In this document: positions 1,287 to 48,626 of the stretch, piece after piece
Numbering within the stretch: the stretch's first letter is position 1
Layout of the letters: each line of letters begins with the position of its first letter
Notes under the pieces: model-generated
The model's database searches: none
Told to the model about the DNA's origin: nothing
Seen by the model: the letters and a program-made list of their open reading frames with translations, nothing else
Source of the DNA: Nevskiales bacterium
GTDB taxonomy: Bacteria > Pseudomonadota > Gammaproteobacteria > Nevskiales > JBOICV01
Direction: 5' to 3'
Assembly (NCBI GenBank): GCA_050740255.1
Contig: JBOICV010000092.1
Coordinates: forward strand, 24,708 to 88,707
Length of the DNA stretch: 64,000 nt
Program-made: the position numbers and the translations under genes

Positions 1287-3500
1287 ATGAAAAAACTACT
1301 GATCGGTTTTGTCGCGGTCATAGCCGCACTCGTCGTGTTCGTCGCAGTTGACCACCGCGGCAAACTGGAGGAACCCGGGGAGATTACCCGCAGCGCTGTG
1401 CCGCCAGAGAGGGTAGCGCAGCGAAACGGCATGCGCGCCGGTAGCGACAAGCAGATCCTGTTCGGTGATCTGCACGTGCATACGACTTACTCAGTGGACG
1501 CGCACGCCTGGAGTATGCCGATATTCCACGGCGAGGGCGTGCATCCACCGGCCGAGGCTTGCGACTACGCGCGCTTCTGCTCCGATCTTGATTTCTGGGC
1601 CACCACTGAGCACGCCGAGTCGCTGACGCCGCGGCACTGGCGCGAGCTCAAGGAAACCGTCCGCCAGTGCAATGCCGTGGCCGGCGATCCGGCCAATCCT
1701 GATCTCGTCTCCTTTCTCGGCTGGGAGTGGACCCAGATGGGAAACACCGCCGAGGAGCACTACGGTCACAAGAACGTGATTTTCATGGATACCGAGGACG
1801 ACAAAGTGCCTGCCCGGCCGATCAGCGCGGGCGGCATAGCCGCGACCGCCATGCGCAACGCCGCCATTCCGTTCTGGCGCAATCTGGTCAGTCCCTATCT
1901 CGACTGGAGCAGCCGCCAGAGCCAGTTCAATCAGCAGTACAAGATGAAGGATCTCAAGGCGCAGCCGCTATGTCCCGATGGCCTTGCCGAGCGCGAAATG
2001 CCGGTTGATTGCGTCGAGTTTGCAGAAACGCCCAGGGAGCTGTTCGCCAAGCTCAACGACTGGGGCTTCGATGCGCTGGTGATTCCGCACGGCAACACCT
2101 GGGGTTATTACACGCCGCCGGGCTCAAGCTGGGACAAACAGTTGACGCGCGAGCAGCATGACCCCAAGCGACAGATGCTGATCGAAGTGTTCTCGGGCCA
2201 CGGCAACTCGGAGGAATTCCGCGACTGGCGCGAAGTGGCCTACGACGCGCAGGGCAATGCAGTCTGTCCCGAACCCACCGAGAATTACCTGCCGTCCTGC
2301 TGGCGCGCGGGCGAGCTGATACGTACGCGCTGTGGCGAACTCTCCACACAGGAGTGCGAGCAGCGCGTGACGACAGGGCAGCTTGACTATCTCGCGGCGG
2401 GACGTGCCGGGCATATCGTCATTCCGGGAGTGCAGCCGGACGACTGGCTTGACTCGGGCCAGTGCCGCGACTGTTATCTGCCGGCCTTCAACTTTCGGCC
2501 GAAAAGCTCAGTGCAGTACGCCGTGGCGCTCAGCAACTTTGATGAGCAGAACGAAGAAGGCAACGGTCCGCTGCGCTTTCGTTTTGGTTTCATTGCCTCC
2601 AGCGATAACCACTCCGCGCAGCCGGGCACCGGCTACAAGGAACTCGACCGCCAGGATAGCGCCGACGTATTCGGCCAGGACGGTGTGTTCAGGGACGGTT
2701 TCATAGACGCGGCCAAGGCCAAGGGCAGTGGCACGGAATCCGTGCCTTACGACCTGACCAGCGGCCGTTTCAACTTCATGCAAATCGCGGAAAGCGAGCG
2801 CCAGCAGTCGTATTTCTACACCGGCGGGCTGGTAGCGGTGCACAGCGCCGGGCGTAACCGCGAAGCGATCTGGGGCGCGATGAAGCGGCGTGAAGTTTAT
2901 GCCACCTCCGGCGAACGCATGCTGTTGTGGTTCGATTTACTGGGCGAGGGTGGGGTCACTGCACCGATGGGCTCGGAAGTCACGGGCGCCGGCGTTCCGC
3001 GTTTTCGCGTGCGCGCGGTAGGCGACTTCGAGCAGCTACCCGGCTGCCCGGAGCACAGCACGACCTCGCTGTCACCCAACCAGATCGCAGGCATCTGCCG
3101 CGGCGAGTGCTATAACCCGTCCGACACGCGCAAGACGATTGAACGCATCGAGGTTATCCGCATCCGCCCGCAGAACACGCCCGGCGAAAACATGGCCGAT
3201 CTGATCCAGGACCCGTGGCAGGTTTTCGCCTGCAGCGGCGATTCCAGCGGCTGCACGGTGGAGTTCGAGGATCCGGGTTTTGCGGCCGAAAACCGGGAAG
3301 TGATTTACTACGTGCGTGCGGTGGAGAAGGTCAGCGCCACCGTCAACGCCGGTAATCTGCGCTGCGAATACAACGAGCAAGGCGAGTGCATCGCGGTAAA
3401 ACCCTGCTTCGGTGATTCCCGCACGTCGGATAACGATGATTGCCTGGCGCCGGCCCCCGAGCGCGCCTGGTCGTCGCCGATTTTCGTGAAACCGTCGTAA
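1287..3500 (+). CDS. DUF3604 domain protein (PHP-like metal-dependent hydrolase fold), N-terminally membrane-anchored
   Basis: 737-aa ORF with RBS gagggagag upstream and an N-terminal TM segment LLIGFVAVIAALVVFVAV. It has the hallmark ILFGDLHVHTTYSVDAH motif and many paired Cys residues, consistent with an extracytoplasmic protein. Confidence 0.8.
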   Translation: MKKLLIGFVAVIAALVVFVAVDHRGKLEEPGEITRSAVPPERVAQRNGMRAGSDKQILFGDLHVHTTYSVDAHAWSMPIFHGEGVHPPAEACDYARFCSDLDFWATTEHAESLTPRHWRELKETVRQCNAVAGDPANPDLVSFLGWEWTQMGNTAEEHYGHKNVIFMDTEDDKVPARPISAGGIAATAMRNAAIPFWRNLVSPYLDWSSRQSQFNQQYKMKDLKAQPLCPDGLAEREMPVDCVEFAETPRELFAKLNDWGFDALVIPHGNTWGYYTPPGSSWDKQLTREQHDPKRQMLIEVFSGHGNSEEFRDWREVAYDAQGNAVCPEPTENYLPSCWRAGELIRTRCGELSTQECEQRVTTGQLDYLAAGRAGHIVIPGVQPDDWLDSGQCRDCYLPAFNFRPKSSVQYAVALSNFDEQNEEGNGPLRFRFGFIASSDNHSAQPGTGYKELDRQDSADVFGQDGVFRDGFIDAAKAKGSGTESVPYDLTSGRFNFMQIAESERQQSYFYTGGLVAVHSAGRNREAIWGAMKRREVYATSGERMLLWFDLLGEGGVTAPMGSEVTGAGVPRFRVRAVGDFEQLPGCPEHSTTSLSPNQIAGICRGECYNPSDTRKTIERIEVIRIRPQNTPGENMADLIQDPWQVFACSGDSSGCTVEFEDPGFAAENREVIYYVRAVEKVSATVNAGNLRCEYNEQGECIAVKPCFGDSRTSDNDDCLAPAPERAWSSPIFVKPS

Positions 3501-3507
3501 CTACTTT

Positions 3508-3541
3508 CCCCTCTCCCTCTGGGAGAGGGTACGGGTGAGGG
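3508..3541. repeat. REP-like palindromic element (CCCTCTCCC-tct-GGGAGAGGG + GGGTGAGGG tail)
   Basis: Perfect 9-nt inverted arms lie directly after the DUF3604 stop. Near-identical copies are at 22967-23002 and 35374-35407. Confidence 0.85.
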
Positions 3542-3627
3542 TTTTTCTACGTGTAGGGGAACGCGGCAAATCGCGCCGGGTCATAAGCTTCAGAGACGGT
3601 TGCGCCGCCCGACAAAGGAGGTAACGG

Positions 3628-4137
3628 ATGTTTCGCGATTACCTCAGGCTCATCACCTTTACCGGCGGGTTGCTCGTGGGCGTGCAGCTCCCATCCTTCG
3701 TTGATCAATACGAGAAGCGGGTGGATGCTCACTATGTTGAAGCGCAGCTGAATTTTGCCGGCTTCCAAGCGACCGCCGACCGCTACTTCGGCGGCGATGT
3801 GGAAGCGATGCTGCGCCATCACGATCAAAGCAGCGACCTGGTATTTCAAGACGAAGCCAAGGCCATCCGCTCCATCTGGCAGCGCCTGCAGATGCTGAAA
3901 GCCGAACAGGCCGCCATGAATCAAGACTTCGTGCGGCAGGTGTATCACCTGCTCGCTAACGCGAATACTGAATTACGGAACGAGACCCGCAGCGCCTACA
4001 GCTATACCGTATTGCTGACGATGGAAGCCATCGCTTCAGGTATCGCTGGTGGTTTCGTGACCGCGTTCAGCGTGGAGCTGGTCGTGCTGTTCTTGGGGGT
4101 CCTGTTTCTACCCGGTCCACGCGCTCGCCGGGTGTAG
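3628..4137 (+). CDS. Small membrane protein, DUF2937-like (family assignment from memory, tentative)
   Basis: 169-aa ORF with a strong RBS aaaggagg 6 nt upstream. TM segments occur at both ends, and the N-terminus reads LPSFVDQYEKRVDAH. Confidence 0.6.
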   Translation: MFRDYLRLITFTGGLLVGVQLPSFVDQYEKRVDAHYVEAQLNFAGFQATADRYFGGDVEAMLRHHDQSSDLVFQDEAKAIRSIWQRLQMLKAEQAAMNQDFVRQVYHLLANANTELRNETRSAYSYTVLLTMEAIASGIAGGFVTAFSVELVVLFLGVLFLPGPRARRV

Positions 4138-35168: not shown

Positions 35169-35245
35169 CGGGGTGTAGCGCAGCCTGGTAGCGCACCTGC
35201 CTTGGGCGCAGGTGGTCGGAGGTTCAAATCCTCTCACCCCGACCA
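35169..35245 (+). tRNA. tRNA-Pro (anticodon TGG)
   Basis: The cloverleaf was folded by hand: acceptor CGGGGTG/CACCCCG, anticodon arm CCTGC-CTTGGGC-GCAGG, T-loop TTCAAAT, encoded CCA. Confidence 0.95.
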
Positions 35246-35269
35246 GCAAGCTTAGAATATGCGGCATCC

Positions 35270-35346
35270 GTGCCCGTAGCTCAGTTGGATAGAGCAACGG
35301 CCTTCTAAGCCGTAGGTCGCAGGTTCGACTCCTGCCGGGCACGCCA
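35270..35346 (+). tRNA. tRNA-Arg (anticodon TCT)
   Basis: Acceptor GTGCCCG/CGGGCAC, anticodon arm ACGGC-CTTCTAA-GCCGT, T-arm GCAGG-TTCGACT-CCTGC, encoded CCA. Confidence 0.95.
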
Positions 35347-35373
35347 GAATTTTATGAGGAGCGATTTTCCTTA

Positions 35374-35407
35374 TCCCCTCTCCCTTTGGGAGAGGATGGG
35401 TGAGGGT
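35374..35407. repeat. REP-like palindromic element between tRNA-Arg and tRNA-His
   Basis: The sequence is tCCCCTCTCCCtttGGGAGAGGatGGGTGAGGG, the same family as 3508 and 22967. Confidence 0.8.
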
Positions 35408-35411
35408 CAAT

Positions 35412-35488
35412 GGTGGCCGTAGCTCAGTTGGTAGAGTCCCGGATTGTGATTCCGGTTGTCGCGGGTTCGAGCCCCGTCGGTCACCCCA
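35412..35488 (+). tRNA. tRNA-His (anticodon GTG, with the extra 5' G-1)
   Basis: G-1 plus acceptor GTGGCCG/CGGTCAC, anticodon arm CCGGA-TTGTGAT-TCCGG, encoded CCA, then a T6 run. Confidence 0.95.
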
Positions 35489-35586
35489 TTTTTTGTGTTA
35501 CGCAGGCGCGCGTTACATTAAAATGCGCGCCCCTGTTGGATGTTTTGGCACAGGATGTGCCAACGCGAAGGCCTGGCCTGAGCGAA

Positions 35587-35616
35587 GGCAATCGAAAATG
35601 ACATTTTTCGATTGCC
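35587..35616. repeat. Perfect 12-bp-stem hairpin GGCAATCGAAAA-tgacat-TTTTCGATTGCC in the tRNA-His/tRNA-Lys spacer
   Basis: Read directly from the sequence. The 171-nt spacer also holds three shorter hairpins (GCGCGC..GCGCGC, TGGCAC..GTGCCA, GCCGTG..CACGGC). Confidence 0.7.
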
Positions 35617-35659
35617 GTGGCGGCACGGCGGCAGGATGCCCCGTCGCCGCGGCAGAAAT

Positions 35660-35735
35660 GGGCCGTTAGCTCAGTTGGTAGAGCAGGAGACTCTTAATCT
35701 CTTGGTCGTAGGTTCGACTCCTACACGGCCCACCA
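35660..35735 (+). tRNA. tRNA-Lys (anticodon CTT)
   Basis: Acceptor GGGCCGT/ACGGCCC, anticodon arm GGAGA-CTCTTAA-TCTCT, T-arm GTAGG-TTCGACT-CCTAC, encoded CCA. Confidence 0.93.
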
Positions 35736-37513: not shown

Positions 37514-37626
37514 ACACTTGGCTTATCCCTATACTGAATTTCGGTGCCAGGAGTGCCTAGGGTGCGCGGGCGTAGATCTGCGTGCCAGGGGTGATAATCG
37601 GGATTACGGATTTTGGGAGGAGAGCA

Positions 37627-38088
37627 ATGCAATCGTTGAAATGGGGGATCGGGACCTTGCTGGCGGCGCTGACGCTTGCGGCGCAAGCCGGCACACCGCT
37701 GCAGCTTGAACCGCAGATGGGTTTTTATGTCACCCGGTATTTCGGCGCCACGGCTGCTGTGCCGACGGAATTCGGTTTTCAGTTCAACTATCGCGATACG
37801 ACCGGATATGCCTACCCGGCGTATGGATTCAACAGCCGGCCGGCCTTGCTGGATCTGCGCTTCAATAGCGGCGGCGTGACGGCGCTGAACATCTCTGGCG
37901 TCAATGCATTGATGCCGACCTACGTGCTCGGTCAGGACGAGGGCGCGGAAGACGGTGACGGGTTCCTAAGCAATATCAACTGGGGCCTGGTAGGCATGGT
38001 CGCGCTAGGCGGCGGTATTTACTATGCGTCGGAAAATTATCGCGATGATCGGGAAGATGATCGCGCACGCGCGCAGGGCGGCGGCTAG
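37627..38088 (+). CDS. Secreted/membrane-anchored hypothetical protein
   Basis: The ATG follows the RBS gggaggag. The signal peptide is MQSLKWGIGTLLAALTLAAQA. It has a C-terminal TM segment WGLVGMVALGGGIYYA and an acidic/basic tail. Confidence 0.6.
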   Translation: MQSLKWGIGTLLAALTLAAQAGTPLQLEPQMGFYVTRYFGATAAVPTEFGFQFNYRDTTGYAYPAYGFNSRPALLDLRFNSGGVTALNISGVNALMPTYVLGQDEGAEDGDGFLSNINWGLVGMVALGGGIYYASENYRDDREDDRARAQGGG

Positions 38089-38308
38089 CCCATATCGCGG
38101 AGGCAATACCCAGCCGGAGCTGCTTTGATTCCGCTCGGTCAAACAACGGGGTGAATCCCGGTTGCCCGCCGCGGCTTGTTAGAGAATACTCAGGCTCATC
38201 GGCTTGGGTTTAGAATGTGTTGAGGCCAGGACAGGCCATGAACAAGATGTAACCGCACTGACCGCCGTCTGTATATCTTGTATCTTGCATATAAGGAATC
38301 TGGGGATT

Positions 38309-39397
38309 ATGAATACCGCAAATCATCTGCAACGCGTTCTCCTATTGGCGCTCACTCTGGGCATCGCACCGCTGGCCGTGGCGCAGGAAGAGGAAGCAGC
38401 AGATAGTGGCGGCGATGACGCTGCCGCCGCGTCCGGCGAGATTGACGACCGCACCTATATCGGCGTGCTCGGCGGGCTGACCGAGCCGGACAGCGATCGA
38501 CCACAGGACTACGACGATGCCTATACGCTATCCATCATCGTCGGCTCGCAGAAGTCCGAAAAGCTGAATACCGAGTGGAATCTCAGCTACAGCACCTTCG
38601 AATACAGCATCGGCGTGATCGAGTTCGCCCATGACTTCCAGGTCAATATCGGTTACGACATTCTTTATTTCCTGAACCGCGATGGCTGGGCGCCCTTTGG
38701 CCTGGCCGGCGTGGCGCTGACCCACGACGCACGTCAGACGTCCGATTCCCAGCACGCCAGCGTCAACGTCGGCGCGGGTGTGATCAAGCCGTTCAACGAC
38801 CACGGCGCGGCGTTCCGCGCCGAAGCCCGTTATCTCTACCATTTCGATGACAAAGACGGCAACGACGATCCGGCCGACATCCGTTTGGTGGCGGGCATCA
38901 CCGTGCCGCTTACGGCCAAGCCGGTCCCGCTGCCTCCGCCCCCACCGCCCCCCACCGCGGTTGATAGCGACGGCGACGGCGTGGTGGATGAGAAAGACAA
39001 GTGCCCCGGCACGCTGGCCGGCGTGAAGGTGGACGGCGATGGCTGCGCCGTGCCGCAGGTGCTCAAGCTGAACGGCGTGAGCTTCGACTTCGATTCGGTG
39101 CGCGTCGGCAAGAACGCCCGCACCATCCTGGATGAGGTGAGCGAAGGCATCAAAGGCCAGCCCAGCATGCAGGTCGAAATCGCCGGTCATACCGACAACT
39201 ACGGCGATGAAACCTACAACCAGCAGTTGTCCGAGCGCCGTGCCAAAGCGGTGCGCGACTATCTGGTGGAAAAAGGTGCGCCGGACGCCAACTTCACCTC
39301 CAAGGGTTATGGCGAAGCAGAGCCGGTGGTGGCGAATGACACCGAGGACGGGCGCGAAGAGAATCGTCGCGTCGAGTTCCGCATCCTGTCGCAATAA
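38309..39397 (+). CDS. OmpA-family outer-membrane protein with a Pro-rich hinge and thrombospondin type-3-like Asp repeats
   Basis: The ATG follows the RBS aaggaa. The signal peptide ends LAVAQ. It contains PLPPPPPPPT, DSDGDGVVDEKDKCPGT, and the OmpA_C motifs GHTDNYGDETYNQQLSERRA and NRRVEFRI. Confidence 0.9.
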   Translation: MNTANHLQRVLLLALTLGIAPLAVAQEEEAADSGGDDAAAASGEIDDRTYIGVLGGLTEPDSDRPQDYDDAYTLSIIVGSQKSEKLNTEWNLSYSTFEYSIGVIEFAHDFQVNIGYDILYFLNRDGWAPFGLAGVALTHDARQTSDSQHASVNVGAGVIKPFNDHGAAFRAEARYLYHFDDKDGNDDPADIRLVAGITVPLTAKPVPLPPPPPPPTAVDSDGDGVVDEKDKCPGTLAGVKVDGDGCAVPQVLKLNGVSFDFDSVRVGKNARTILDEVSEGIKGQPSMQVEIAGHTDNYGDETYNQQLSERRAKAVRDYLVEKGAPDANFTSKGYGEAEPVVANDTEDGREENRRVEFRILSQ

Positions 39398-39415
39398 TTA
39401 TCAGGACTACGACAT

Positions 39416-39886
39416 ATGAATACAGCAATGCTTCGCAAGCTCGCAGCGGTCGCTATCGCGGCCGTTGCACTGAGTCTCAACGCCTGCCATTCGACCGATA
39501 CTGAGGGTGGAATTGATCCGACTCAGCCCGGTGGCGGTCCTGGCGCCGGCGGCGGGCAAGGTGGCTGTCCGCCCGGCAGCGTTTTGAACGGCGCACAATG
39601 CACGGTCACCGATCTGGTGGATGAGCTGGCCGAGGTACTGGCGGGCACACCGCTGGAAGGCTTCATTCAGTGCCTGGATCCCACCGTGAACGACCTGGCG
39701 GAAGGGCCAGATGTGCTGCTGCAGGCGCTGTTGGACGCGCTCGCTAACCAGGCCGCGGATCCCGCTGCCGTTACGGACGCGGCGACTGCTTTAGCGGACG
39801 CGCTGACGTCCTTGACTGTAAACGTACCTAATCTGCTGCTTGCTTTGACCGGTGATCCGGCGGCGATTGCCGCGTGCACCACCTGA
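39416..39886 (+). CDS. Lipoprotein of unknown function, as delimited by an in-frame TGA
   Basis: Lipobox VALSLNAC, a Gly/Pro-rich linker, then an Ala/Leu/Asp-rich helical region. It ends ..DPAAIAACTT*. Confidence 0.7.
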   Translation: MNTAMLRKLAAVAIAAVALSLNACHSTDTEGGIDPTQPGGGPGAGGGQGGCPPGSVLNGAQCTVTDLVDELAEVLAGTPLEGFIQCLDPTVNDLAEGPDVLLQALLDALANQAADPAAVTDAATALADALTSLTVNVPNLLLALTGDPAAIAACTT

Positions 39887-40108
39887 GGTGGTAGTGGAGG
39901 GGGCGGTGGTGGTGGTACAACTCCCCCGTTTGATGCCAGCGCGCTCTGCGCCGTTCCCGTGTTGGATCCGGCCATCGTAGGTGCTGCAGGCGGTTCCTGC
40001 ACTGGCGGTCCTGGCGGCGGTGCAACCCCGGTGGAGCCGACCGCGTTGTGCGCGATACCGTCACTTGGACCGGCGCTTGCCGGCATCGCAGGCGTGACCT
40101 GCCCGTAA
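39887..40108 (+). other. 74-codon open extension in the same frame as the preceding lipoprotein gene (readthrough segment or recently truncated C-terminus)
   Basis: It translates to GGSGGGGGGGTTPPFDASALCAVPVLDPAIVGAAGGSCTGGPGGGATPVEPTALCAIPSLGPALAGIAGVTCP*. There is no internal start codon with an RBS. The terminator follows this segment, not the TGA. Confidence 0.55.
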
Positions 40109-40125
40109 ACCGCAAAAGCTTGCGA

Positions 40126-40156
40126 GAAGGCCCCGCTTGCGGGGCCTTCTTTTTTT
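40126..40156 (+). terminator. Rho-independent terminator
   Basis: The sequence is GAAGGCCCCGC-tt-GCGGGGCCTTC followed by T7, a perfect GC-rich stem 18 nt after the TAA at 40106-40108. Confidence 0.9.
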
Positions 40157-40234
40157 GCCGACAAAGGACTGCGTGATTCACAAGCCTACGCAACTCGCTT
40201 AGGCTGAACGCTGATATCTGCTGTCAAAGTCCTC

Positions 40235-41341
40235 ATGCGCCGAATGTTCTTCGTAGCCGCGCTCCTGCTGCTGATTACAGGACTTGCCGGCTATAAATTT
40301 TTTTACTCCCGCACGCCGGCCGCCGCCGCGCCGCCGGCGGCGTCAAACGCGGCGCAGCTTGCCGCCGGCCGCCCGGTCATACCGGTTGAAACTGCCCAAG
40401 TGCTACAGGACAGGCTGCGCGACAGCGTGACCGTAGTGGCGGCGCTGACGGCAAACGAAGCCGTGGTGATTCGGCCGGAAATCGCGGGTCGCATTGAGGC
40501 GATGGCCTTGCGCGAAGGCCAGCCGGTGACACGCGGCAGCTTATTGATTCAACTCGATGACGCCATTACCGCCGCCGAACTGGCACAGGCCGCCGCCGGC
40601 GAGGAACGCGCACAGCGCCTGCGCGACGGCGGCCGCAAGTTGGTCGGACAAGGCTATATCAGCGCCACTGAAATGGACCGGCTGGAAACCGAACTCAAAC
40701 TGGCCGAGGCGAACCGCAAGCTCGCCCAGGCGCGACAGGACAAAACCAGGATTTACGCGCCGTTCGCCGGTCAGCTCGGCTTGCGCCAGGTCAGCGTGGG
40801 CGACTACGTCACGCCGGGCCAGAGTCTGGTCAACCTGGATGATCTCGCCAGTCTCAAGGTGGATTTCCGTGTGCCGGAAACCTATCTTGCGGCGCTCAGC
40901 GTCGGACAGACGATCGAGTTGGAGGTGGACAGCTTTCCAGGTGTGCGCTTCACCGGCGAGGTTTACGCCCTGGATCCGCAAATTTCCGCGGCGGACCACA
41001 GCGTCGCCCTGCGAGCGCGCGTGCCGAATCCGGCCGGACAACTGCGACCCGGCCTGTTCGCCCGCGTGAATCTGCTGCTGGCGGAGCGGGCCAACGCACT
41101 ACTTATTCCGGAGCAGGCGGTGTTGCCGCAGGGTGACGGCAATTTCGTGTATCGCGTGCAGGACGGGCAGGTGAATCTGACCGCCGTCACGCTCGGCCAG
41201 CGGCGTCCCGGCCAGGTCGAGGTGTTAAGCGGTCTGCAGCTTGGCGATACGGTCGTGACGTCCGGCCAGCAAAAGCTCATCGACGGCGTGCCGGTCGCGC
41301 CAGTGGCCGTACCGCCGTCGGCTCCCCGCGCAGCGCCCTGA
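40235..41341 (+). CDS. Efflux RND transporter periplasmic adaptor (membrane fusion protein)
   Basis: 368 aa with an N-terminal anchor. It has the lipoyl/hairpin/beta-barrel pattern (IRPEIAGRI..L.QLDD, coiled coil, IYAPFAGQLG..V..G.YV). Confidence 0.9.
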   Translation: MRRMFFVAALLLLITGLAGYKFFYSRTPAAAAPPAASNAAQLAAGRPVIPVETAQVLQDRLRDSVTVVAALTANEAVVIRPEIAGRIEAMALREGQPVTRGSLLIQLDDAITAAELAQAAAGEERAQRLRDGGRKLVGQGYISATEMDRLETELKLAEANRKLAQARQDKTRIYAPFAGQLGLRQVSVGDYVTPGQSLVNLDDLASLKVDFRVPETYLAALSVGQTIELEVDSFPGVRFTGEVYALDPQISAADHSVALRARVPNPAGQLRPGLFARVNLLLAERANALLIPEQAVLPQGDGNFVYRVQDGQVNLTAVTLGQRRPGQVEVLSGLQLGDTVVTSGQQKLIDGVPVAPVAVPPSAPRAAP

Positions 41342-41345
41342 ATCA

Positions 41346-44300
41346 ATGCGCCTACCGGAACTGTGCATCGAGCGTCCGGTCTTCGCCTGGGTGCTGAGCC
41401 TGGTGGTCTTGCTGTTGGGAGTGATCGCCTACCAGCGCCTCACGGTGCGCGAGTACCCCAACATCGATCCGCCGGTGGTGACCGTGACCACCCGCTATCC
41501 GGGCGCAAGTGCGGAGATCATCGAAAGCCAGGTCACGCAGGTGCTGGAAGAGTCTTTGGGCGGTATCGAAGGGATCGACTTCATGTCCTCGATCAGCCGC
41601 GAAGAGCAGAGCCAGATTACCGTGACGTTTCTCTTGAGCCGCGATGCCGATGCTACCGCGAGCGATGTGCGCGACCGTGTCAGCCGGGTACGCCGTGCGC
41701 TGCCGGAGGAAATAGACGATCCGGTGATCGAGAAGGTCGAGGCGGACGCGCAGCCGATCATGTTCCTGGCTTTTTCCAGCAACCGGCACACGCCACTGGA
41801 TCTCAGCGATATCGCCGACCGCCGCGTCAAAGACCGCCTGCAAACGCTACCGGGCGTGGCGCAGGCGCGTATCTTCGGCCAACGCCGCTACTCCATGCGC
41901 ATCTATCTCAACCCCGAGCGTCTGGCGGCGCACAGCCTGACGGTGCAGGACGTCGAGACGGCGCTCAGCGCCCAGAATCTGGAGGTGCCCGGCGGCCGAA
42001 TCGAGGGCGCGCAACGCGAATTCACGGTGTTGTCGGAAACCGACTTGCGCAGTAAAGAACAGTTCGATGCCTTGATTCTGCGCGACAGCCGCAGTGCCAA
42101 CGGCGGCTATCTGGTGCGCCTCAGCGATGTCGGGCGCGCCGAGCTGGGTGCGGAAGACGAACGGGTGTTGGCGCGCCTGAATGGCAAGACGGCGGTGGCG
42201 CTGGGCGTGATCAAACAATCCACCGCCAATCCGCTGGAAGTCTCGCAGGCGGTGCGCGCAGAGCTGCCCCGGATCACCAAACTGCTGCCCGAGGGCATGC
42301 AGGTCGAGGTCGCGCGCGACACCGCGGTATTTATCGAGCAGTCCATTGCCAATGTTTACGAGACCATCGCGGAAGCGGTAGCGCTGGTGATACTGATCAT
42401 TTTCTTTTTTCTGCGTTCCTTGCGCGCGACGCTGATTCCGCTGGTGACGATTCCGGTGTCGCTGATCGGCGCCTGCGCCGTCATGTATGCGCTCGGCTTC
42501 AGCCTCAACACGCTAACGCTGCTGGCGCTGGTGCTCGCGATCGGGCTGGTGGTGGACGACGCGATCGTCATGCTCGAAAACATCCACCGGCATATCGAGC
42601 AGGGCAGCACCCGGCGCGAGGCGGCGATACGCGGCAGCCGCGAAATCGGCTTTGCGATCATCGCCATGACGCTAACGCTGGTGGCGGTATTCATTCCGGT
42701 AGGGTTTCAGGAGGGCACCACCGGCAAATTGTTCACCGAATTCGCCTGGACCCTGGCCGGCGCCGTGCTGGTTTCCGGTTTCGTCGCGCTGACGCTATCG
42801 CCGATGATGTGCTCACGGCTGCTGCGCGAGCACGAGCGACACGGCGCCATTTACAACCGCATCGAAGCTTTGATCCAGGGTACGACCGTGGGCTATCGCC
42901 GCCTGCTGGGCGCCGGTCTGCGCCGGCCCTTGCTGGTACTGGCGGTCGGCCTTGGGGTCGCCGCGACCGGCGCGGGCCTGTTCCGCCTGCTCAAAAGCGA
43001 ACTGGCGCCGGCGGAAGATCAGGGCTCGATCATCGGTTTTCTGTCCGGGCCTGAAGGCGCCACCATCGAGTACATGGACGCATCCATGCGCAAGGTCGAG
43101 GCGATTTATGCGGCGGTCCCGGAGATTCGTAACTATTTCGTCGTAGTGGGCAACCCGGTCATCACCAACGGGATTTCCTTCGCCAATCTCACGCCCTGGC
43201 AGACTCGTGAGCGTACCCAGCAAGAGATTGCCCAGGAAATAACGCCAAAGATGTTCGGTGGCATTCCGGGCGTACGCGCATTCCCCACTGGCCGCCCGCC
43301 GCTGGGTCAGCCGGTGCGCTCGCTGCCGATCGGCCTGGTGGTGCAGACCACCGGCAGCTATGCCGAACTCGACCAGAGCATGCAGGCGCTGCTGCAGCGC
43401 CTGCAGTCCAACCCGGGGCTGATCAATCCGGATACCGACCTGAAACTGAACAAACCGCAGCTGCGCGTAACGCTGGATCGCGAAAAGGTCGCGATACTGG
43501 GCGTCAGCGTGGCAACTATCGGCCGCACGCTGGAAACCCTGCTGGGTGGCCGCAAGCTGACCCGCTTCAAACGTGAAGGCGAGCAGTACGACGTTATCGT
43601 CCAGCTCGATCGCGTGGACCGGCGCAATCCGAACGATCTGGCGCGCATTTACGTGCGCGGCGCACAAGGTATGGTGCAGCTCGCCAACCTGGTGCAGCTG
43701 CGAGAAACGGTCGCGCCGCGTGAACTGAATCACTTCGACCAGTTGCGCGCGGCCACCCTGACGGCAGGGCTTGCGCCCGGCTATTCGTTGGGCGAGGCGC
43801 TGGACTTCGTCGAGGCTGCGGCCGCTGAAGTGCTGCCCGATAACGCTCGTGTGGACTTCTCGGGTCTGTCGCGCGAGTTTAAACAATCCAGTGCCAGTCT
43901 CTGGATCACCTTCGGTCTGGCACTGGCGTTCATCTATCTGGTGCTGGCGGCGCAGTTCGAAAGTTTTCTCGATCCGCTGATTATTCTGCTGACCGTACCC
44001 CTGTCCATCGCCGGCGCGCTGCTGGCGCTCAAGCTCAGTGGCGGCACGCTCAACATCTATAGCAAGGTCGGCCTGGTCACGCTGATCGGTCTCATTACGA
44101 AGCACGGTATTCTCATCGTCGAGTTTTCCAACCAGTTGCGTGCGCAGGGGCGGTCGCTGCTCGACGCGGTGACGGAAGCCGCGGTGCTGCGGCTGCGACC
44201 CATTCTGATGACGACCGGCGCGATGGTGCTGGGTGCGCTGCCGCTGGCGGTGGCCAGCGGCGCCGGCGCCGAGAGCCGCCAGGAAATCGGCTGGGTCATC

Positions 44301-48541: not shown

Positions 48542-48626
<85 letters not shown>

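Follow-up and report, generated by a model that had tools for sequence, protein, structure and literature searches.

A probable recent nonsense mutation in a repeat-bearing lipoprotein gene of a Nevskiales bacterium

The locus

We present here the analysis of a lipoprotein gene with an in-frame TGA, located in a 64,000-nucleotide stretch of DNA (hereafter, the window) from a metagenome-assembled genome (MAG) of a Nevskiales bacterium. Coordinates are window positions unless another contig is named. The ORF (39416-39886, plus strand) starts with ATG at 39416 and encodes 156 amino acids, comprising a signal peptide, a lipobox, and a helical N-domain. Its N-terminus, MNTAMLRKLAAVAIAAVALSLNA followed by Cys24 (codon 39485-39487), represents the signal peptide and the lipobox L-N-A-C (..ALSLNA-C24); the Cys is invariant, and the orthologs have LTGC, LAGC, or LSGC at this site. 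Signal peptides and lipoboxes were called in the window protein and its orthologs by inspection of the sequences, not with a dedicated predictor, and on these features the product is a predicted bacterial lipoprotein that would serve as a substrate of Lgt and LspA. The N-domain contains four conserved cysteines (Cys51, Cys62, Cys86, and Cys154). NCBI lists the ORF in a 152-aa form (MGH8529518.1, ACRETN_06705) for a Nevskiales bacterium MAG, with the annotation 'hypothetical protein', and the window protein scored above threshold for no Pfam or NCBIfam family.

An earlier note, made from the sequence alone, had placed the end of the lipoprotein ORF at the TGA at 39884-39886, after ..AACTT, and had followed the same frame onward to a TAA at 40106-40108. 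Both sets of coordinates were confirmed, and the open run consists of 73 sense codons and the TAA. The premature, plus-strand TGA lies at the start of a poly-Gly linker, and the break point is the domain boundary where the N-domain gives way to that linker.

The 73 codons and their presumed ancestral TAA (39887-40108, plus strand) are treated here as a relic C-terminal coding region on the basis of homology and dN/dS values given below. The region contains a Gly-rich linker and two copies of a Cys-bounded motif, as the note had described, in the order GGSGGGGGGGTT, PPFDASALCAVPVLDPAIVGAAGGSC, TGGPGGGATPVEPTALCAIPSLGPALAGIAGVTCP. The linker GGSGGGGGGGTT (39887-39922, plus strand) lies 3' of the stop, aligns with the poly-Gly linkers of the orthologs, and includes a period-3 GGT tract at 39887-39916. 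The two repeat cores, both on the plus strand, are LCAVPVLDPAIVGAAGGSC (core 1, 39944-40000) and LCAIPSLGPALAGIAGVTC (core 2, 40046-40102). Core 2 matches the ortholog repeat consensus at 6 of 6 invariant positions. Position 8 of core 1 is Asp (codon GAT, 39965-39967), and the same position is Gly in all 20 of the 20 ortholog repeats; this is the sole deviation from the repeat consensus in the window and gives a slight hint that decay may have begun. The region terminates in ..GVTCP, the usual end of the family, with ..CP also ending P0006 and P0008-P0011.

No start codon of its own serves the extension, in agreement with the note. Separate expression from a GTG at 39959 was considered and rejected, since the product would lack the signal peptide that a Cys-rich module needs for export. 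Two minus-strand ORFs cover the region (39667-40164 and 39828-40193). They had been regarded as shadows of the plus-strand frame and have no support of their own, the coding evidence lying on the plus-strand frame.

An intrinsic terminator occupies 40124-40158 on the plus strand, with a 12-bp stem (8 GC pairs) at 40124-40151 and then a T-run. The GC-rich hairpin and T tract had thus been rightly located after the extension rather than after the TGA, and the site is the only plus-strand terminator-like one in 38000-41500. It follows the full-length stop TAA, which is the ancestral position, and an equivalent hairpin is found 3' of the ortholog stops in loci L002, L003, and L008.

Directly upstream, with 18 nt between the genes, is a gene for an OmpA-family peptidoglycan-binding protein (38204-39397, plus strand). 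Its listed TTG start is probably too far upstream, and the true start would be the ATG at about 38309, because the orthologs are 350-363 aa long and the signal peptide MNTANHLQRVLLLALTLGIAPLAVAQ begins there. The protein contains a poly-Pro tract and Asp-rich thrombospondin-type-3-like motifs, followed by an OmpA_C domain. The two genes are always paired, the OmpA-family gene preceding the lipoprotein gene in the window and in L001, L003, L008, L009, and L011. The MFP/RND efflux genes downstream in the window are not conserved partners; L009 has an RsmJ gene directly after the lipoprotein gene. A cluster of four tRNA genes (Pro-TGG, Arg-TCT, His-GTG, and Lys-CTT) is present at 35169-35735, about 4 kb upstream, and further tRNA genes lie at 48542 (Leu-TAG), 55509 (Val-TAC), and 55646 (Asp-GTC).

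A gene for a secreted protein is conserved 5' of the OmpA-like gene (window 37582-38088, L001 3153-3722, L009 1111-1716, and L003 714-1175). In L001 and L009, the secreted protein has a Gly/Ser linker and a tail that copies the lipoprotein tail of the same genome. The tail TTPISGECLPGDPTGMLCAP in L001 matches the lipoprotein remnant STPISGQCLPGTPSGMLCAP, and the tail GTPLDVVLDPVAGAAGGGLPAP in L009 matches GTPLDAVLGQLPAP of P0005, all four running to a stop codon. The copies in the window and L003 stop at ..AQGGG, without the tail. The pattern suggests concerted evolution of a C-terminal module shared by the genes on either side of the OmpA-like gene.

Comparison with orthologs

With the read-through translation as the query, four proteins cover 100% of its length, namely, P0001 (320 aa), P0004 (291 aa), P0005 (383 aa), and P0006 (254 aa). 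The TGA column of the alignment falls in the poly-Gly linker of all four. In every ortholog, Cys154 is followed by a Gly-rich linker (C-T-G-G-G-G.., C-V-A-G-P-G-G.., or C-V-N-G-G-G..), and the codons at the TGA position are GGN or AAY (Gly or Asn, mostly Gly) and never TGY; Cys occurs at this column in none of the aligned homologs. P0001, P0004, P0005, P0006, P0008-P0011, and P0018 all read through the linker into one to five repeats, and P0008-P0011 and P0018 have a single repeat and end in ..C-P. The earlier note had looked to orthologs for a decision between its explanations; they carry sense codons at the TGA position, followed by homologous repeats.

The openness of the 73-codon frame is weak evidence by itself and not beyond chance, as 24-26% of mono- and dinucleotide shuffles of the extension (38% G and 31% C) are also open over 73 codons. 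The extension is counted as real coding sequence because it is homologous to the C-termini of the orthologs. It shares 77% identity with residues 198-257 of P0004 over 60 residues (E 2e-18), and the identity of the N-domain is lower, at 63%. A GC3/frame-composition test is uninformative for the extension, in which the first two positions of the Gly, Pro, and Ala codons are G or C, and homology-based dN/dS was used in its place. Determined by the Nei-Gojobori method on codon alignments, with dS near saturation, dN/dS is 0.09-0.30 for the extension and 0.10-0.26 for the N-domain against the same orthologs. The extension thus evolved as coding sequence, under past purifying selection, for nearly all of its divergence, and from the match between its dN/dS and that of the N-domain the stop is probably recent. 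The ortholog sense codons and the matching dN/dS values support the first explanation offered in the note, a recent nonsense mutation truncating a longer protein.

Authenticity of the TGA

The same 156-aa product, residue for residue, is predicted from two Logan contigs, L012 (run SRR27067738) and L013 (run SRR27067739). L012 equals window positions 38745-41801 (3,057 nt) and L013 equals positions 38777-39891 (1,115 nt), each with 0 mismatches and with the TGA included. The runs represent separate libraries and assemblers but not independent populations; their accession numbers are consecutive, and they probably belong to the same study as the MAG. A literature search for SRR27067738 and SRR27067739 returned no match.

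A sequencing or assembly artefact would mean that the true codon is a sense codon (e.g., GGA) and that the gene is an intact 230-aa ORF. The window does come from a MAG, its TGA sits in a GGN-rich, inverted-repeat context of the kind that is prone to sequence-specific Illumina errors, and contig L013 stops 5 nt past the TGA. The MAG and the Logan assemblies of the two runs nevertheless agree base for base over 3,057 and 1,115 nt, and a consensus error common to both libraries and to different assemblers is unlikely. Random read or assembler error is excluded by the absence of mismatches in the assemblies of both runs, and systematic error at the TGA is unlikely on evidence that is at the assembly level. 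The break in L013 could hide heterogeneity, but low complexity is the likelier cause, because the poly-Pro tract in the OmpA-like gene is likewise where both L012 and L013 break at their starts. The sequencing error that the earlier note had listed among its options is thereby largely excluded, and we give an artefact very little chance. The window gene combines three marks of a nonsense allele, namely, sense codons in its orthologs, a homologous and constrained extension, and a real stop.

Recoding and read-through

Of 32 long, GC3-consistent ORFs in the window, 15 end in TGA, more than in any other stop codon, and UGA is therefore not reassigned in the manner of tables 4 and 25. Selenocysteine recoding would place Sec at the UGA, within a C-T-T-U motif, and yield the complete 230-aa protein. 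The UGA does stand three residues after the conserved Cys154, which is formally CxxU spacing, and the frame stays open after it, with homology to genuine coding sequence. Against this, the aligned ortholog residues are Gly or Asn in a low-complexity linker and never Cys, and relatives lose the same repeat region by other mutations. The earlier note had proposed a search for a SECIS-like hairpin downstream of the TGA. The fold of 39884-39950 has a minimum free energy of -24.6 kcal/mol, compared with a mean of -24.2 kcal/mol for shuffled sequences (z = -0.15), and shows nothing distinctive; it consists of pairing between G-runs and C-runs of the poly-Gly/Pro coding tract. No tRNA-Sec was found in the 64-kb window, and an Rfam scan of the whole window returned tRNAs only and no relevant family. 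Bacterial selenoprotein genes with UGA and SECIS, such as fdhF, resemble the window gene in the in-frame UGA, the open, coding-like frame, and the Cys three residues upstream. The window gene differs from them in having no Cys/Sec match in its homologs, no distinctive downstream hairpin, and a UGA positioned in a poly-Gly linker. The probability of selenocysteine insertion is in our judgment close to nil. Stop-codon recoding in general, which the earlier note had left open, finds no support, given the lack of an ortholog Cys, the z of -0.15, and the 15 of 32 long ORFs ended by TGA.

UGA is the leakiest bacterial stop codon. Functional or programmed read-through of a leaky UGA would give a major lipoprotein with the N-domain only and a minor full-length isoform. 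Such a product would be in keeping with an almost intact extension and a terminator placed after it, and the UGA lies in the loop of a small hairpin and adjoins a G-rich tract. That hairpin, ACCACC-UGA-GGUGGU, encloses the stop codon instead of lying 3' of it, and its stability is unremarkable (z = -1.4). Moreover, the TGA is kept in no relative, repeat 1 is mutated at an invariant Gly, and a recent mutation predicts an intact extension anyway. We regard programmed read-through as very improbable.

Origin of the stop

The explanation that we hold to be very probable is that the TGA at 39884-39886 is a real, recent nonsense mutation in a Nevskiales population and not a recoding signal. The ancestral gene would have encoded a lipoprotein of about 230 aa, with a lipobox-containing signal peptide, a helical four-Cys N-domain, a poly-Gly linker, and two repeats. 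The repeats would have been Cys-bounded, about 30 aa each, and helix-hairpin-helix-like, ending in ..GVTCP ahead of the TAA and terminator. A change in the first linker codons would then have produced the TGA, most simply from GGA by one G-to-T transversion. The window linker itself uses GGA; the alignment inside the poly-Gly run is ambiguous, and the exact ancestral codon is not fixed by it. Translation would now end after the N-domain and yield a 156-aa lipoprotein like the natural repeat-less relative P0003, and this truncated protein presumably still functions. The 73 downstream codons would be transcribed up to the old terminator and left untranslated, except by basal UGA read-through.

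A perfect inverted repeat, ACCACCT-G-AGGTGGT (39878-39892), is centred on the TGA, and the T of the TGA extends its arms from 6 to 7 bp. There are 86 such inverted repeats with 7-bp arms in the 64-kb window, making the combination of TGA and inverted repeat a modest coincidence. A quasi-palindrome or template-switch origin of the TGA would fit the extended palindrome and is possible; the repeat is equally explicable by the adjacent Thr (ACC) and Gly (GGT) codons.

The window gene resembles the ordinary nonsense alleles or early pseudogenes of bacterial envelope and surface proteins. These likewise have an in-frame stop, longer orthologs, an open homologous downstream frame, and a retained ancestral stop and terminator, and their 5' part may yield a functional truncated product. 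The window gene differs from them in that the break falls exactly at a domain boundary and the product is like P0003, and its family is uncharacterised and rare.

The family and its repeat module

The N-domain defines a small, rare, and uncharacterised lipoprotein family; among 1.84 billion proteins, 22 representatives match it at E up to 1e-3. In the more distant members of the family, the C-terminal region is of other kinds. Genome and metagenome scans for additional loci returned only distant relatives (L004, L005, and L006). L004 (positions 2557-4026) belongs to Sinimarinibacterium flocculans DSM 104150 and is the only relative found in the genome of a named strain, the others being from MAGs. 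Its mechanically called ORF is 489 aa long with an internal lipobox and has the N-domain motif GTPLEGVIQC in common; its C-terminal region is different, being long, Ala/Leu/Gly-rich, and terminated by a Cys pair. Neither of the orthologs P0004 and P0005 reached the threshold of any NCBIfam family.

The N-domain profile aligns with each of the CW_7 repeats of the phage Cpl-7 lysozyme (PDB 5i8l and 4cvd) around ..LANxxxDPxAVQD.., and the window gene adjoins a peptidoglycan-binding OmpA-family gene. The E-values are only 0.014-1.6 per repeat, and the summed E of 2e-9 overstates the match, since three near-identical repeats contribute to it. Pfam scans gave no CW_7 match. This weak resemblance may serve as a lead and is not evidence of membership.

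The repeat core comprises 19 residues, L-C-A-[IVL]-P-x-[LVI]-G-P-x-[LIV]-[VA]-x-x-x-G-x-x-C, with six invariant positions. The family core L-C-A-[IV]-P-x-[LV]-G-P-x-L-[VA]-x-A-A-G resembles the consensus of the helix-hairpin-helix motif (HhH; Pfam PF00633), as found in periplasmic ComEA. The repeat cores of P0005 score 33.9 bits against PF00633 (cut-off, 24). The window extension gave no match to PF00633 at E up to 10, and its repeats thus lie short of the gathering threshold for HhH membership. The family units also differ from HhH in that each is enclosed by two invariant Cys, which presumably form a disulfide staple, and in that Gly linkers lie between the units. In most family repeats, T, V, S, or A takes the place of the first Gly of the G-h-G hairpin, and the likeness to HhH is one of sequence and model only. 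In an AF2 model of ortholog P0006 (low confidence, pLDDT 56), the N-domain is helical and each repeat takes the form of a helix-turn-helix.

Repeat copies number 0 to 5 per protein among the relatives examined. P0036 and P0037 consist of a lipobox and three or four Cys-bounded repeats, without the N-domain, and the repeat array is therefore an autonomous module. The longest contig listed for P0037 is 2,003 nt, as for P0008. Repeats are also missing from the translated products of two other lineages. In L001 (MAG GCA_975200385.1), the gene ends in C-T-G-G-TGA, and a repeat remnant and tail, EAAGATCSGGGGGGSTPISGQCLPGTPSGMLCAP, continue to a stop in the +1 frame. The lesion has the form of a frameshifting deletion that begins in the linker and ends partway through a repeat. 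L014, a Logan contig from another run, carries the identical lesion, which was thus seen in two samples. A programmed +1 frameshift in L001 was rejected, as the remnant starts mid-repeat (EAAGATC..), just as a deletion would leave it. In L003, all repeats were removed by an in-frame deletion. Three lineages without translated repeats thus have three different lesions: a nonsense mutation (the window), a frameshifting deletion (L001/L014), and an in-frame deletion (L003).

Loci L002 (P0001) and L003 (P0003), which come from different samples, encode the same protein over the first ~90 codons and match in their 3' ends and terminators. They differ in a central segment of the N-domain, where L003 is window-like, and in their repeats (5 in L002 and 0 in L003). 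The pattern has the look of a mosaic or recombinant locus in a single species.

The repeat array fits a dispensable, mutationally unstable module, and selection for its loss is possible. In that case, the truncation would be one instance of the recurrent, advantageous removal of a dispensable, variable C-terminal array. The 0 to 5 repeats among relatives, the three kinds of lesion in three lineages, the purifying selection on the N-domain in all three repeat-less lineages, and the stand-alone repeats of lipoproteins P0036 and P0037 are consistent with such selection. The sample is small, however, at about 15 sequences, and repeat arrays are mutationally unstable anyway, so that recurrence needs no selection. 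We consider selected loss unlikely. A bolder idea, which we hold to be less probable still, is that the array is a separable envelope module that is often gained and lost, with the TGA as a selected 'off' state and residual UGA read-through that might supply a trace of full-length protein. Separability is proposed because of the 0 to 5 copies, the stand-alone P0036 and P0037, and the neighbouring gene product that copies the lipoprotein tail.

A recent nonsense mutation is still the reading that we prefer, and under it the annotated 152/156-aa 'hypothetical protein' would be a truncated allele. The window gene is removed as a candidate for stop-codon recoding or selenocysteine insertion, a negative result. 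What is mildly novel is confined to the uncharacterised family and to its variable repeat module. The comparison defines a small lipoprotein family with a variable, repeatedly lost repeat array, which is not surprising in itself and could be of interest to envelope biology.
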